Source of the DNA: a virus
Taxonomy: Duplodnaviria; Heunggongvirae; Uroviricota; Caudoviricetes
Virus record (IMG/VR): IMGVR_UViG_2939521961_000009
DNA length: 64,000 nucleotides
Reading direction: 5' to 3' (one strand)
The notes below the pieces were generated by a model. The model ran no database searches. It was not told the DNA's origin and saw nothing but the letters and a program-made list of their open reading frames with translations. Made by a program: the position numbers and the translations under genes. Positions 2,923 through 52,890 of the stretch are shown one piece after another (position 1 is the stretch's first letter; each line of letters begins with the position of its first letter).

Positions 2923-3834
2923 TTACACTGAACTTACCGTTCTCCAGGCATTATTAATATAAATCTGAACCGGGCGATAATAGACCCCACCGATATTGTC
3001 CGCAGACCGGGAGCCGGTTTCCTGCACGTTAATACCGGAAAGCATACAACCGGAAGGTGCGCTGTAATTCCATGATATTTCATTGCCTCCGGGTGAATGA
3101 TAGCTCTGTGCTCCAAGCTGAACATTCTGTACATACCGGCCATCTGCGGTTGACTGCGTCATTCCTGACGTGATGTTGATATCCTGCGTTCCGTCAAAAG
3201 GAACGCCATTAATATTTCTTGGGGTGGCGAGTCTGTTTGCTGCCACGGCGGTTCCACCCGATGGCAGGGCATCAGCAGCCTTATTTACCGTTTCCCGTAA
3301 ACCGACGTTATCGATAAAAGCGCCTTTATCCGGAATGTCTGCGCCGTTCTGCTCCCTGCGCAGGTAACGGTTATCACCTTCGCTTTTGCTGTAAACATCC
3401 AGATTATTACGGGCGGTTCCCGCATTCTCCAGGTCGGCAAGGTTCTGATCCTTCGCCAGAGCATTAACGTCACCGGGACCAAGACTGTTTTTTGTGGCAA
3501 GCGCCCCAAGACCAAGATAACCACGGGCAAGACGCTGGGCTTCCGCACCGGCATCAGCAATTTCTTTCAGGTTGTTTTTCCGGGAAAAGGCATTCGCAGC
3601 GATAATGGCTTTAATGGACAGCGTAAGCTGGTTTAACTGCGCCTTATCCGGCTGAATACTGGCTTCAGCCAGAATATTCAGCAGTTCGGCCTGGAGAATA
3701 TTCAGCCAGTCCTGACCAATCCAGCTGATACCTTTTTGTCCGTCACCTTCGGTAAACCAGGTGGTGGTATTACTCTGCGCCGGTGCCAGCGCAGGCATAT
3801 TCGCCACGCCGGAATTATTATCAACATGAAACAT
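2923..3834 (-). CDS. Tail fibre protein (Mu S-like); constant N-terminus fused to the currently expressed variable tip
   Basis: 303 aa; C-terminus crosses the gix site and right inverted repeat; start overlaps stop of upstream gene at 3834. Confidence 0.8.
   Translation of the reverse strand: MFHVDNNSGVANMPALAPAQSNTTTWFTEGDGQKGISWIGQDWLNILQAELLNILAEASIQPDKAQLNQLTLSIKAIIAANAFSRKNNLKEIADAGAEAQRLARGYLGLGALATKNSLGPGDVNALAKDQNLADLENAGTARNNLDVYSKSEGDNRYLRREQNGADIPDKGAFIDNVGLRETVNKAADALPSGGTAVAANRLATPRNINGVPFDGTQDINITSGMTQSTADGRYVQNVQLGAQSYHSPGGNEISWNYSAPSGCMLSGINVQETGSRSADNIGGVYYRPVQIYINNAWRTVSSV
3152..3304. repeat. Inverted repeat, right copy of invertible segment
   Basis: Reverse complement matches 1931-2083; encodes the conserved ...ATPRNINGVPFDGTQDINITSGMTQ stretch in both tail-fibre variants. 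Confidence 0.8.
3292..3317. other. gix/pix-like recombination crossover site (right)
   Basis: TTCCCGTAAACC GA CGTTATCGATAA on plus strand; shares the 12-bp half-site with the left site in inverted orientation. Confidence 0.6.
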
Positions 3835-4394
3835 TAAATAGTCTCCTCTTCATGGCTGTTTGCATACACGTAAATAAACGTCTGCCATGCAGGCTTATAA
3901 CGGTTCAGAATACATTCCAGCGCACCGCCTTCATAAATACGCAGCGGCGTGAGAATATCATCCAGCACATTCATATTCCGGTAGCCGGTTTCACTGTTAA
4001 TCGTGACAATACTGACCCACTGTGAATCCGGTGATGGCTGAATATCTATTTCATAACCAAACTCTGCCGCAAACCGGATATAAAATTCACGGTTAAGAGA
4101 GGGTTTCATCCGGTATTTATTCCCGGCATAACGCTGACGCTCCTGAATGGTTGCGCCGGTCATATCACATTCCGGTAACCCCAGATAACGCTCCCAGTCT
4201 TCCAGCAGCAGACGGGATGAATCAGGAAAACGTTCTGCCAGCATCTGGTTACCGGTCCAGGAAACACGCTCCGTGGAATGACTGAGGCCCAGGCACAAAG
4301 CCGCAAGAACGGATGACGGCCGCTTATCCCATGCCAGCCCGTCAGGCAGCAACTGCAACAGGGCACGCTGATGCGGGGTCAGGGTTACAGCCAT
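3834..4394 (-). CDS. Tail protein, Mu gp48-like (DUF2313 / YmfQ-like)
   Basis: 186 aa; position between baseplate J-like gene and tail fibre; family resemblance from memory. Confidence 0.7.
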   Translation of the reverse strand: MAVTLTPHQRALLQLLPDGLAWDKRPSSVLAALCLGLSHSTERVSWTGNQMLAERFPDSSRLLLEDWERYLGLPECDMTGATIQERQRYAGNKYRMKPSLNREFYIRFAAEFGYEIDIQPSPDSQWVSIVTINSETGYRNMNVLDDILTPLRIYEGGALECILNRYKPAWQTFIYVYANSHEEETI

Positions 4395-49267: not shown

Positions 49268-49600
49268 ATGTCTGTCACAATTCAGGGAAATACCTCAACC
49301 GTTATTTCAAACAACTCCGCCCCGGAAGGAACATCAGAAATAGCCAAAATCACAAGACAAATTCAGGTGCTGACTGAAAAGCTTGGGAAAATCTCATCGG
49401 AAGAGGGGATGACGACACAGCAGAAAAAAGAAATGGCTGCATTGGTACAGAAGCAAATTGAAAGCCTCAGGGCTCAACTGGAGCAGTTGTTAAGGCAGCA
49501 GGCAGAGAAAAAGAATAAAGACGCGACAGTTCAGCCTGATAAAAAAGAAGAGAAAAAAGACGATACAAATACCGCTGGCACCATTGATATTTACGTCTAA
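49268..49600 (+). CDS. flxA: FlxA-like protein
   Basis: 110 aa MSVTIQGNTSTVISNNSAPEGTSEIAKITRQIQVLTEKL... Confidence 0.85.
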   Translation: MSVTIQGNTSTVISNNSAPEGTSEIAKITRQIQVLTEKLGKISSEEGMTTQQKKEMAALVQKQIESLRAQLEQLLRQQAEKKNKDATVQPDKKEEKKDDTNTAGTIDIYV

Positions 49601-49614
49601 GTGACAGCCGTATT

Positions 49615-49640
49615 GTGGCCCTCATCGGGCCACTTTTCGC
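49615..49640 (+). terminator. Rho-independent terminator after flxA
   Basis: GTGGCCC-TCATC-GGGCCAC followed by TTTTCGCC. Confidence 0.55.
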
Positions 49641-49794
49641 CATCAGCCTTTTCTTTAAAGACATATTATCTTTGTATCATTTCTGATAGTTAACATTACA
49701 AGATATAAGTAATGGACGCACTCCCAATTAGTCTATTTAAATCGCCACGAGTTTAACTGACAACCCATGATCAATTATGAATTGCAACTATTTC

Positions 49795-51438
49795 TGTAGT
49801 CACTTTTGTGGGGACAGTCCACAAAACTGCCAACTTCCGCTTCTTGCTCTTAGCGGACATTAGCATAGGCTATTTACCATAACGCCTCATTACGCGCACC
49901 GCCCAGACTGACTCAGCGCGTTTCTGGCATATCCCCGGTAAAACAAGTAACAAACCACCCGAAAATGAACATCAGAAACGCGACTTAAGAATCTACCCTA
50001 TGAATGGATATGCACTCAACCGAATCGATCTTGGTTTCAATCTATTTTATCGGGATCAGGCTTCTTTTTAGGTAACTTCGGGGGCTTAACTTGCTGATGA
50101 CTTTGCGTTCGGCGCGTAAGCCAGGGATGGTCAGCTTTAGATTTAACATAGTATTTTGAGCGTAAATCAATACGGGCATTATCCACTCGTTCATGGACAC
50201 TCTTTTCATCATCCAGTGGTATAGGCTCCGGGCCATCAACATACTTTTCCCAGCCCAGCGCTTTCCCGTCATACAGAACGTTAATTTCACCGTCAAAGTT
50301 CTCACATACAGTAACAACCGAATGCCTAAGTCGATATCCCCGGCCCTCACTGCGTACCTGAAACGCACTGCTTTTGTACTGGAAAGTGAGATTTTTAGAC
50401 AGAACGCGCTTCGCCTGTAGGCTGAAGATATAACCCAGTTCCTCTTCAGAATGGTGCACATCAAGATGAGCATTATCAGTAGTACGAGGCGACGTAGCGA
50501 ACCGGTTGTTATAGGCTTCAATAAAGGTCGGCAACCATGCATTTGCTGTTTCAATATCACTGATATTCTGAAGCCGCATTTCTTTGACCAGCCTGTCCTG
50601 TAGTGTCTGATTGGCGCGCTCTACCCGCCCTTTTGCCTGCGGGCTGTTGGCATGGATTGGCTCGATGCCCAGTGTCTTTATCGCACGAGTGAACTGGGTC
50701 AGCTCACCTTCCCGCTCTGGGTTATTTACCCTGAATATACTGTGTCTATCAGAGTAGAGAGCGAGCGGTACGCCATGATCATTAAGGTAACCCCGGAGGG
50801 TTTCCATGTAAGCCCGGGTTGTTTCAGCAGGCACAAAACGCAACGCCATCAACGCACTGGTGGCATCATCAATGAAAACGATCAGTGTACATCTGGGGCC
50901 TCGATTTTCAAACCAGTCATGAGGTGAGCCATCAATCTGGATCAGTTCACCGTAAGATGGTCGTCGCATGCGGCGTTGATATATACGGGCAATTTTACGA
51001 CGGCGTTCACGCCATAACCCCTCTTCTATCATCCACTTTCTGAGAGTTTCAACGGATAAAGATAAACCGTGTATCTCGCGCAATTTTTCGCACGCAAACG
51101 TAGGTCCAAAATCAGCGTAACGGCCTTTGAGGAGTGAAATTACTGTTGCTCTGAATTCAGTAGAAAAGGAATTATTAGGACGCTTTCCACGTCGGTGGGA
51201 AACCAGACCAGAAGGCCCTTCATTTCTATACCGTTGCACCAGACGTTTAACCTGCCGAATAGAAATGCCAATGCGTGCCGCAGCTTGTTCCTGAGTAATA
51301 TGTCGATTAATTGACTCCTGAATAATCTGAAGTCGGTGGAGTTCCTTATGACTCATCGTAACAGTCTCTTTGATCATGAAAAATCCCCCAGAGAATTGTC
51401 TGGGGACATTTTAGAATGGTTCAAAGGGGACATTACAG
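49795..51438 (-). mobile_element. Insertion sequence carrying single rve-type DDE transposase (IS481/ISNCY-like); boundaries approximate
   Basis: Single 446-aa HTH+integrase-core transposase; candidate TGTA-initiated imperfect ends; no target duplication confirmed. Confidence 0.4.
50037..51377 (-). CDS. DDE (rve/integrase-core) transposase with N-terminal HTH
   Basis: 446 aa; LIQIDGSPHDWF...IDDATS...YSDRHSIF... integrase-core-like D,D,E spacing. Confidence 0.75.
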   Translation of the reverse strand: MIKETVTMSHKELHRLQIIQESINRHITQEQAAARIGISIRQVKRLVQRYRNEGPSGLVSHRRGKRPNNSFSTEFRATVISLLKGRYADFGPTFACEKLREIHGLSLSVETLRKWMIEEGLWRERRRKIARIYQRRMRRPSYGELIQIDGSPHDWFENRGPRCTLIVFIDDATSALMALRFVPAETTRAYMETLRGYLNDHGVPLALYSDRHSIFRVNNPEREGELTQFTRAIKTLGIEPIHANSPQAKGRVERANQTLQDRLVKEMRLQNISDIETANAWLPTFIEAYNNRFATSPRTTDNAHLDVHHSEEELGYIFSLQAKRVLSKNLTFQYKSSAFQVRSEGRGYRLRHSVVTVCENFDGEINVLYDGKALGWEKYVDGPEPIPLDDEKSVHERVDNARIDLRSKYYVKSKADHPWLTRRTQSHQQVKPPKLPKKKPDPDKID

Positions 51439-51830
51439 CTTGGTGTTAACAATAGCCTGCTTCTCCTTGCCTTCCGGCACTCGCGACAGATTATGTTTAG
51501 ACGACTGTCGTAGCGACGTATTTCTCCGTCAGGTAATGACCAGATAAGGTCCGGATCAACCACAGCAGGTTTCTTCACCTTTGCCCTCGAGAGTTTTTTG
51601 CGGGCGTTTTGCCAGTCCTTACGCGCCTGTTCAGACGGGAATAACCCGTAACCAGAGCTGTATACATCGCCACTGGCAACCAGCTCTCTGGCCAGAACGC
51701 TCATCAGATATCTTGTTGCCCCAGTTTTAGCTTCCAGTTGTCGTAACGTCTCGCGCCCACTCTGGCGTACGAGTTCCACCACCTGCCCTTTAATTTTTTC
51801 CCGCTCTTCTTGTGTAAAAACTTTTGCCAC
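51411..51830 (-). CDS. Hypothetical replication-region protein, C-terminus probably altered by IS insertion
   Basis: 139 aa; ORF terminates within ~30 bp of the IS boundary. Confidence 0.4.
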   Translation of the reverse strand: MAKVFTQEEREKIKGQVVELVRQSGRETLRQLEAKTGATRYLMSVLARELVASGDVYSSGYGLFPSEQARKDWQNARKKLSRAKVKKPAVVDPDLIWSLPDGEIRRYDSRLNIICRECRKARRSRLLLTPSCNVPFEPF

Positions 51831-51870
51831 AAGTCCTCCTGAACATTACTTTATACCCTAAAATCAACAC

Positions 51871-52890
51871 TTATCCCCTGAAACCAGGCGGAATTTCTGT
51901 ATCCGGTTCAGAAATATGATTCACACAACGCTGTACAGGTGAACGTCCCAGGCGGATGACCAGTTCGTCCCATTTTTCGCGGAGTTTTGACGGGCTCATG
52001 ATGTTTTTTACCCAGAATTGATCTCGCTGTACCCGACCAAACATTTCGCAAATTTGTCTGTGGCTTCTGCCATCCAGCATCCGCATTGTGCGCACGTCAT
52101 TGGCCCAGGCTGTCCAGTTAGGCTCTTTTGGTCGCATGATCTCTCCATCGTCGCTGGCAGCCTGTTCGTAAAGGTTCACGATCCGCCCCCAAATCCACTG
52201 CGCACACGCCAAATCCTCCCTGCTACCCCACTGGCGTTTTTTCGCACTAAACACAACCGCGTCGGGGTTCCGGGTTAAAAAATCCTGTTCAGCGGTCTGC
52301 TGGTCCGGTTGCGAAGCTTCCGGACGAAAAGTGTTTTTATTCTCTGTAGTAATCTCTGTTGTATTCTCTGTAAGATCATCAGGCCATTTTGACCCGATGA
52401 CATTGGGTCGTTTTGAACCAATGGAGCGTTTCATTTTGACCTCTTCCATCGTGTCATTTTGACCTGATGGAGCGGCGCATTTTAAACCGATGGATTCGCT
52501 CAATTTGCCACCATCTAAAAGCTCGCTCCCGTAGTTGATCGTGTAGAAATTGGTCATATCGCGCTTTGATTTATTGAGCTTTTCACAACGCAAAAGCCCC
52601 AGCGTTTTCAGACTTGCAAACGCGCGCTTTAACGTTGACTCTGACCAGAATGGGAACTGTTCCAGCCATTGTTCCGTTGTGTTGTAAATCCAGCGAACAC
52701 CATCACATTCCATGCCGGAATTGGTATCTCTCAACCAGTAATGCAACTGCTGCAACACAATGGCTTCATTTAAGCCAATCTTCATCGCAAGCTGTGTGTT
52801 TATAACCAGTGGGCGTTCAGCAAAAAGAAGGCTCATAATTCCATCCAGCTTTTTGTTGGTATTGCTGTCGATACGCAAGTTTGAAAGCAA
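51871..52890 (-). CDS. Putative replication initiation / replisome-organiser-like protein
   Basis: 339 aa; N-terminal winged-helix-like segment; position downstream of cro-like gene. Confidence 0.45.
   Translation of the reverse strand: MLSNLRIDSNTNKKLDGIMSLLFAERPLVINTQLAMKIGLNEAIVLQQLHYWLRDTNSGMECDGVRWIYNTTEQWLEQFPFWSESTLKRAFASLKTLGLLRCEKLNKSKRDMTNFYTINYGSELLDGGKLSESIGLKCAAPSGQNDTMEEVKMKRSIGSKRPNVIGSKWPDDLTENTTEITTENKNTFRPEASQPDQQTAEQDFLTRNPDAVVFSAKKRQWGSREDLACAQWIWGRIVNLYEQAASDDGEIMRPKEPNWTAWANDVRTMRMLDGRSHRQICEMFGRVQRDQFWVKNIMSPSKLREKWDELVIRLGRSPVQRCVNHISEPDTEIPPGFRG

Follow-up and report, generated by a model that had tools for sequence, protein, structure and literature searches.

Whether a transposase gene lying beside a seemingly truncated open reading frame (ORF) marks a recent insertion into a working gene, or is the residue of older and less direct events, is the question raised by positions 49795-51830 of a stretch of DNA from IMG/VR virus record IMGVR_UViG_2939521961_000009 (Caudoviricetes). 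The whole stretch, 64,000 nucleotides of one strand, is called the window. The segment contains, at window 49829-51451 on the minus strand, a 1,623-bp ISEsa1-type insertion sequence (IS) of the IS1202 family (formerly the ISNCY/IS1202 group). Comparison with other genomes makes it very probable that this is one ISEsa1-type copy in a Qin-type defective lambdoid prophage of an Escherichia coli O26:H11-like chromosome, and that the copy is most likely old, vertically inherited and now immobile. In itself the element is unremarkable: the IS is already catalogued, and the defective prophage that holds it is well known. Two of its properties appear to be undescribed: a cer-type XerCD site in its interior, and a left end that abuts hok leaders. 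The parts of the element on which the argument first depends are as follows.

49829-51451, minus strand: the whole ISEsa1-type element, delimited by the points at which homology to independent copies in other contexts starts and stops
50037-51377, minus strand: the transposase gene, 446 amino acids (aa; 439 aa from Met8), intact, with helix-turn-helix (HTH) and DDE domains, identified by Pfam, NCBIfam and residue alignment
51400-51451, minus strand: the left end (IRL), with the tip TGTTAACACCAAGC (51438-51451), conserved in relatives, and two direct AATGTCCCC repeats (51426-34, 51402-10)
49829-49863, minus strand: the right end (IRR), truncated and degenerate in multi-copy alignment, with an inner AATGTCCGC (49853-61) in direct orientation

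Identity of the element and its transposase

The original prediction held that a single 446-aa protein with HTH and integrase-core domains, encoded between flxA and the replication genes, belonged to an rve-type IS at the lambdoid replication region. Both points are borne out: the ORF matches Pfam HTH_28/HTH_29/HTH_32/HTH_23 in its N-terminal part and the rve_3 core, and the element is a DDE-type IS adjoining a Qin-type replication module. The NCBIfam model NF033594, 'ISNCY family transposase' (ISNCY_2), is matched at 465.5 bits (E 1.2e-139; cut-off 250 bits), far above IS481, IS21 and IS3. Members of the IS1202 family encode one transposase of 400-500 aa, with an N-terminal HTH and an rve-like DDE domain. 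The family is further characterized by a DDE triad with two extra Asp residues between the first two D, and by a Gln, in place of K/R, seven residues past the Glu (bioRxiv 10.1101/2022.12.17.520857). In the window protein D149, D210 and E253, the extra D170/D171 and Q260 (E+7) are all intact, and they are conserved in an alignment with relatives down to 43% identity. The name given in RefSeq is 'IS1202-like element ISEsa1 family transposase'. With regard to a phage integrase, no tyrosine- or serine-recombinase domain was found, Pfam and NCBIfam giving only HTH and DDE-transposase families.

RefSeq/PGAP cuts the intact 446-aa ORF in two, as 'protein YdfW' (50037-50186) and as a 'partial, missing C-terminus' pseudogene (50307-51377); this division is an annotation artifact. 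Because K-12 strains keep only window 49700-50221, followed by ydfX, K-12 ydfW (old name intK) is the C-terminal stump of the transposase, comprising its last 49 codons.

Copies of this 1.6-kb unit with 91-99.6% identity are found in unrelated settings, including Kluyvera, Citrobacter and Scandinavium. A copy on a Klebsiella pneumoniae IncFII plasmid is 99.6% identical and adjoins ncrY, and copies on IncHI2-type plasmids of Cronobacter and Enterobacter share 91% DNA and 94% aa identity with the window element. These plasmid copies (L005 for IncFII, L006/L007 for IncHI2-type; L numbers denote loci compared) and 14 enterobacterial loci defined the boundaries, and the comparison copies also included 78 loci from a reference-genome scan. 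The ends were taken from the comparison of independent copies because a search for inverted repeats within the region, at boundaries 49795/51830, gave nothing convincing, only pairs at chance level. The extent first proposed, 49795-51830, proved too wide by this measure.

For ISEsa1 of Cronobacter sakazakii, the ISfinder values are 1,609 bp, terminal inverted repeats matching at 15/22 positions, 439 aa and no target duplication (PMC10132070 Table 7). The window element resembles it in several respects: a shorter, ISfinder-style definition, 49829-51437 with TGTAATGTCCCC at 51437, likewise measures 1,609 bp, the protein has 439 aa from Met8, a target duplication is lacking, and the RefSeq name is the same. 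The termini of L007 match at 14/22 positions. The differences are a mutated outer right-end repeat in the E. coli/Klebsiella variant, and a conserved left end that reaches 14 bp further (TGTTAACACCAAGC) than the ISfinder-length definition.

Ends of the element and target duplication

On the transposase-proximal side TGTTAACACCAAGCTGTAATGTCCCC is where every copy starts, relatives at 78-80% aa identity from unrelated contexts among them, and the tip is therefore placed at window 51451. Relatives of 78-100% aa identity whose flanks differ keep this tip. A near-identical tip is present in relatives from Hahella (62% aa identity) and from chlamydial/Rhabdochlamydiaceae genomes (50% aa identity), where it adjoins 16-bp target duplications. 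The duplications are perfect in Hahella sp. SMD15-11 (at least 10 copies), in Chromatiales metagenome-assembled genomes (MAGs) and in a Rhabdochlamydiaceae MAG (at least 9 copies), the elements measuring 1,449-1,466 bp. The Hahella relatives (loci L029-L035, L038, L039 and L055) and those of Rhabdochlamydiaceae (L045-L047, L051-L053, L067, L068 and L074) are thus multi-copy and evidently active; L030 consists of two tandem copies with one shared duplication.

Termini in the IS1202 family are imperfect inverted repeats of ~22-29 bp that start 5'-TGT. The left end of the window copy begins TGTTAAC at the tip and is intact, whereas the right end is without a TGT tip. The motif AATGTCCSC has three occurrences in the window, all on the minus strand, namely the two left-end repeats and the inner right-end repeat listed above; the GGGGACA-containing motifs near both ends had been described as direct and not inverted, and so they are. 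The AATGTCCCC repeats are probably transposase-binding sites. A properly inverted outer right-end copy, TGCAATGTCCGC in the Enterobacter copies (L007), has become GCCAACTTCCGC in the window; read on the plus strand, the mutated outer repeat is AACTTCCGC at 49832-40, as against CAATGTCCGC in the Enterobacter/Cronobacter copies. Homology among the copies stops on this side at ~49829; set against the Hahella element, the whole enterobacterial clade lacks the last ~14 bp of the right end.

No target duplication, of 16 bp or shorter, is present at 49829/51451, the best 16-bp match having 6 mismatches, and none was found in ~25 enterobacterial copies, that of the window included. The failure of the original prediction to confirm inverted termini or a target duplication therefore reflects a real property of the locus, the right end being truncated and mutated in the window copy. 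Target duplications in the family are subgroup-specific, of 5-6, 15-17 or 27-28 bp, and ISEsa1 is reported without one (PMC10132070).

Two further observations concern the right-end boundary. An imperfect hairpin, GTAGTCACTTTTGTGG / CCACAAAACTGCCAAC, lies at window 49796-49834, just outside the boundary and overlapping it, and a similar AGTTTTGT(C/G)(C/G)AC comes after the right end in a Kluyvera copy (L028). The IS110-family element ISEsa2 is inserted at one identical spot in the right-end hairpin (AATGTCCGC-N13-GCGGACATT) in L002/L006, L011, L012 and L014-L017, which come from several genera.

The chimeric lygF ORF

The apparent truncation of the gene beside the left end involves two overlapping features.

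51411-51830, minus strand: the chimeric lygF' (DUF977) ORF, 139 aa, with a Pfam DUF977 match over residues 1-121
51452-51480, minus strand: a hok/sok leader relic (the hok Shine-Dalgarno/ATG region, ...GGCAAGGAGAAGCAGGCTAT), matching the last 29 nt of the left-end flank in L003/L021 and L010, a flank that scores 90-104 bits with Rfam RF01794 (sok)

It had been suggested that the C terminus of the 139-aa ORF was replaced by IS sequence. This stands insofar as the last 20 residues, KARRSRLLLTPSCNVPFEPF, are not LygF and the stop codon (51411-51413) lies 38 bp inside the element's left end, 33 bp before the transposase ATG; what has to be revised is that the hok-leader relic contributes to these residues together with the IS left end, and that the fusion itself was probably made by a deletion. 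The native LygF part comprises residues 1-119 (51473-51830). In the 24 phage LygF/DUF977 genes compared, the similarity (up to 97.5% identity) begins at residue 1, covers as far as residues 119-121 and is lost beyond them; the gene is not full length in the window. The 133-aa LygF of phage mEp460 is identical in register through CRECR(119) and continues into a different 14-aa tail, ending MSEVMQRILAFYQG.

At the DNA level, lygF homology ends at ...GAGTGCCGGA (window 51473), and it overlaps the hok-leader homology in GTGCCGGA (51473-51480, minus strand), an 8-bp microhomology. At the corresponding Qin site of E. coli CREC-629 (L003) the DUF977 gene is full length, other genes (a methyltransferase gene, DUF7167 and an IS66 element) take up ~4 kb, and a complete 172-nt hok-leader flank adjoins the IS. 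Since CREC-629 keeps the full DUF977 gene, the intervening genes and the whole flank, a microhomology deletion in O26 is favored; judged from these sequence comparisons, the lygF fusion is best explained by such a deletion, of a few kb, rather than by the IS having inserted into this gene. The possibility of a larger element whose outer repeats in L003/L006 would lie beyond 51480 was considered and rejected, as the shared sequence is hok/sok leader.

hok leaders at the left end

The flank of the left tip matches Rfam RF01794 (sok) at 81-104 bits in L003, L010, L014, L017, L021, L026, L028 and L043, and more weakly in L011. The match is on the same strand as the transposase gene and stops at the tip of the IS; the leaders occupy positions 4725-4896 in L003 and ~1256-1427 in L010, L014, L017, L021, L026, L028 and L043. 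The junction falls at the hok Shine-Dalgarno/ATG region, reading ...GGAGAAGAAGGCCAT(G)/TGTTAAC, where the stroke marks the tip. In Citrobacter portucalensis A60 (L024) the same 16 nt stand on the other side of the tip, inverted, and after them comes an intact Hok ORF with 81% identity to R1 Hok. No other copy has such an ORF in intact form; the window holds a leader relic of 21-29 bp and no Hok ORF, and neither a Hok ORF or hok 3' sequence nor a duplication was detected beyond the right end. The sequence AAACTGCC at 49824-31 resembles hok codons 2-4, but it has the wrong orientation and was treated as a chance match.

In L011, L014 and L017 the IS copies are 100% identical over 1,400 bp, whereas their leaders are only 60-72% identical. 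Because identical IS copies adjoin divergent hok leaders, the comparison argues for repeated, site-specific events and not for shared ancestry of the junction, and it suggests that the IS has target specificity for hok translation-initiation regions. A copy without a hok leader, in Kluyvera sp. STS39-E (L020 1337-1450), has on the opposite strand an Rfam isrO match (RF01397, 58.8 bits) that extends up to and across the left tip.

In 1999 Pedersen and Gerdes reportedly described E. coli K-12 hokA, hokC and hokE loci with adjoining IS150/IS186, inactivated. The present junctions resemble these IS-inactivated K-12 hok/sok loci in that an IS stands at a hok/sok locus whose toxin is lost or uncoupled. 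They differ in the IS family, in a junction that is always at the hok Shine-Dalgarno/start codon, and in the recurrence of identical IS copies beside leaders of only 60-72% identity.

Fixation and decay in E. coli

The chromosomal surroundings of the element are those of a Qin-type defective prophage, with the gene order ydfT, ydfU, rem, hokD, relBE, ydfV, flxA, element, DUF977, O-like, YdaT-like, Cro/CI-type regulators, ydfA, dicB. The prophage replication operon (cro, ydaT-like, O-like, lygF) is upstream of the element and on the same strand, and window 49600-52000 is matched at 100% by E. coli O26:H11 str. 11368. The gene on the other side is the following.

49268-49600, plus strand: flxA, with a Pfam FlxA match

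A survey covered 5,426 complete E. coli genomes. The flxA-side flank is joined to the IS end in 1,171 of them, and 785 contain at least 80% of the element, the median being one place per genome. The same flxA-side junction is common to K-12, CREC-629 and Shigella, whose right-hand sides differ; in K-12 nothing remains but the right end, the cer site and 49 codons from the end of the transposase gene. Given this junction in ~1,170 genomes, the copy is taken to be old, fixed and probably immobile, and it was most likely inherited vertically with the Qin variant and eroded by different deletions in different lineages.

Comparison with homologous prophages, which had been proposed as a check, was informative in one respect and not in the other: no empty, uninterrupted site was found in the 5,426 genomes, but the CREC-629 version of Qin supplied the full DUF977 gene and the hok leader beside the IS. 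Two candidates for an empty site were rejected. PS1Phumofeces1 (L004) is a deletion derivative, since the outer 34 bp of the right end remain, and F8704-2 is interrupted by another element, of the IS3 family. The CREC-629 copy is itself 27 bp shorter internally (1,589 as against 1,616 bp from tip to right-end motif) and carries a transposase gene that the annotation marks as a pseudogene.

On an Enterobacter cloacae plasmid (L007 1-101; NZ_CP104841.1) the relB product, WP_000534858.1, encoded ~2.6 kb from the right end of the IS, is identical to Qin RelB. This identity hints that a Qin-like segment may have been exchanged between the chromosome and IncHI2-type plasmids.

A cer-type XerCD site within the element

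Between the transposase gene and the right end lies a segment that aligns with the multimer-resolution site of ColE1. Sites of this type have two 11-bp arms around a central region of 6-8 bp, and on the XerC side ~180 bp of accessory sequence with an ArgR box and a PepA region. Its parts, identified against reference Xer-site sequences quoted in PMC2410131, are as follows.

49872-50040, minus strand: the cer-type XerCD site, from arm matches and alignment with ColE1 cer
~50040 to 49901, minus strand: the accessory region, with an ARG-box-like TGCATATCCATTCA at ~50001-50014
49900-49890, minus strand: the XerC arm, GGTGCGCGTAA, 10/11 against E. coli dif
49889-49883, minus strand: the central region, TGAGGCG, 7 bp
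49882-49872, minus strand: the XerD arm, TTATGGTAAAT, 11/11 against ColE1 cer

In a BLAST comparison with plasmids, window 49868-50020 matches many ColE1-type plasmids of 3-15 kb at 74-79% identity, with E values down to 3e-16; the matching plasmid DNA is unannotated and is situated just downstream of exc2, where cer lies. The alignment with ColE1 3720-3938 (core 3909-3938) runs through ~180 bp of accessory sequence, including the position of the ARG box. This is the only Xer site of its kind within the window. A weak dif/cer-like candidate near the left end, TTATGTTTAGA at 51491, was rejected because its XerC side misfits and the sequence is native lygF, and a scan for dif/cer-like sites found none adjoining the left end.

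The site is situated ~135 bp 3' of the transposase stop, and ~22 bp inside the right-end repeat, and because of that location it moves with the element. It occupies the same position in nearly all enterobacterial relatives, down to ~80% aa identity, and is absent from the Hahella and chlamydial relatives. Since K-12 keeps window 49700-50221, it carries the complete site, which is thus also present, in cryptic form and adjoining ydfW, in the chromosomes of K-12 and ~1,200 other E. coli genomes.

In the Citrobacter portucalensis copy (L024 2976-4146; NZ_MVFY01000016.1) a 1.13-kb cassette stands exactly at the IS-borne cer core. It holds three small ORFs, one of them DUF2158 and one lipoprotein-like, between two direct Xer sites, and the normal IS sequence resumes past the second XerD arm. 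The arrangement is the expected product of Xer-mediated integration, which suggests that the site can be active. On such grounds the cer-type site may be a recombination site that works, depends on the host (XerCD/ArgR/PepA) and is carried along by the IS.

The most serious competitor to a working site is that the segment is a passive hitch-hiker: plasmid backbone that became caught between the transposase gene and an improvised right end, and that would neither serve the IS nor be active in the chromosome. This explanation is rated somewhat below an even chance. It is consistent with the Hahella and chlamydial relatives, which transpose normally without a cer site, with the degenerate Xer cores of L040 and L043 and the lack of a site in L022, and with the truncated appearance of the adjoining right end. 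It accounts less well for the retention of the site at one position down to ~80% aa identity, and for the Scandinavium/Dryocola clade (80% identity), where the arms are exactly those of ColE1 cer and flank a different 8-bp central region, which suggests maintenance or renewal and not decay. The Citrobacter cassette, as an expected Xer integration product, also counts against it.

Relation to known systems

Among the subgroups of the IS1202 family, that of ISTde1, with 15-17-bp duplications, resembles the present element in that the closest intact relatives share the left tip and make 16-bp duplications. The enterobacterial ISEsa1 clade differs from it by an extra ~200-bp cer segment, a truncated right end and the lack of duplications. 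With the Xer-site-targeting ISAjo2/ISAba32 subgroup the element has in common the transposase family and a physical link to XerCD sites. In ISAjo2/ISAba32 an external dif-like site has its XerC arm 5-6 bp away from the left end, and the duplication is 5-6 bp (PMC10132070); in the present element, by contrast, the Xer site is internal and 3' of the transposase gene, cer accessory sequence lies between the two, and the left end adjoins a hok leader. The likeness to ColE1 cer and to the cer-like multimer-resolution sites of small plasmids extends to the XerC arm, the central region, the XerD arm, ~180 bp of accessory sequence and an ARG-box-like element. The window site differs from ColE1 cer in lying inside an IS, in being a single chromosomal copy in the window, and in a central region of 7 rather than 8 bp.

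Proposed history and competing explanations

In the mechanism proposed, the HTH and DDE transposase would bind the AATGTCCSC repeats at the ends and cut at the TGT tips, intact relatives making a 16-bp duplication in the process. The IS would first have entered a prophage-borne hok/sok locus at the hok start codon, and the side carrying the hok ORF would then have been lost. Finally, the 8-bp GTGCCGGA would have been the site of a deletion, a few kb long and confined to the O26 lineage, that fused codon 119 of lygF to the hok leader's final ~21 nt, giving the 139-aa ORF.

Several points weigh against this account of an old, inactive ISEsa1-type copy. The order of events (hok insertion, hok loss, lygF deletion) is drawn from other genomes, and with no empty site among the genomes surveyed the original insertion event cannot be reconstructed. 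The equivalence to ISEsa1 is founded on the length, the size of the ORF, the name in RefSeq and the identity of 91% (DNA) and 94% (aa) to Cronobacter and Enterobacter copies, the ISfinder entry having been compared through its published figures only. The function of the cer-type site is deduced from its sequence and from one natural rearrangement, that in L024. Finally, an intact transposase ORF is somewhat unexpected for a dead element after long residence, and leaves room for some activity or selection.

A competing explanation is that the 139-aa ORF arose in the O26 lineage when a recently active IS landed in the 3' end of lygF and so truncated the gene directly. The intact transposase ORF and left end, and a neighboring ORF that is truncated right at the element, are what such an event would leave. 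The junction itself, however, is of another kind: 21-29 bp of hok leader separate lygF from the IS tip, lygF and relic meet in an 8-bp microhomology, no 16-bp duplication is present, and the tip of the right end is missing and mutated. Moreover, the flxA-side junction is also found in K-12, CREC-629 and Shigella, with different right-hand sides. A recent insertion is accordingly considered very improbable, and the old, vertically inherited copy is preferred. That the 446-aa gene is no mobile element at all but a conserved phage gene, a Qin integrase-like one as the name intK/ydfW implies, is hardly credible even though more than 1,100 E. coli genomes have it at one fixed position, in single copy and without a target duplication, for the same unit occurs on unrelated IncFII and IncHI2 plasmids and in many genera with homology ending at the same two boundaries in all, its Hahella and chlamydial relatives are multi-copy with 16-bp duplications, and its profile scores are those of an ISNCY transposase and not of a phage integrase.

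Implications

Taken as given, the finding matters little, amounting to a catalogued IS in a known prophage and a local annotation problem. A broader interpretation is offered tentatively and is on present evidence rather unlikely: that ISEsa1-type elements form a distinct branch of IS1202 that does not target XerCD sites outside itself but carries its own complete cer-type site and inserts its left end at the hok translation start, and that Xer-mediated flank exchange could explain the missing duplications. Neither the internal cer-type site nor the hok association was found described in IS1202-family papers or in the searchable literature, and a link between the family and XerCD sites, with these as targets, dates only from 2022-2023.

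Were this interpretation true, a built-in site would let the host XerCD/ArgR/PepA system resolve cointegrates or plasmid multimers, and small circular cassettes could integrate into the IS, as in the Citrobacter copy. The cryptic complete cer site in the Qin prophage of K-12 and of ~1,200 other E. coli genomes would then be a by-product. A cer site within the IS would offer an explanation for the reported lack of target duplications in ISEsa1, and an IS1202-family element with a full cer site, found repeatedly at hok start codons, would newly connect transposition, Xer recombination and plasmid-maintenance modules.

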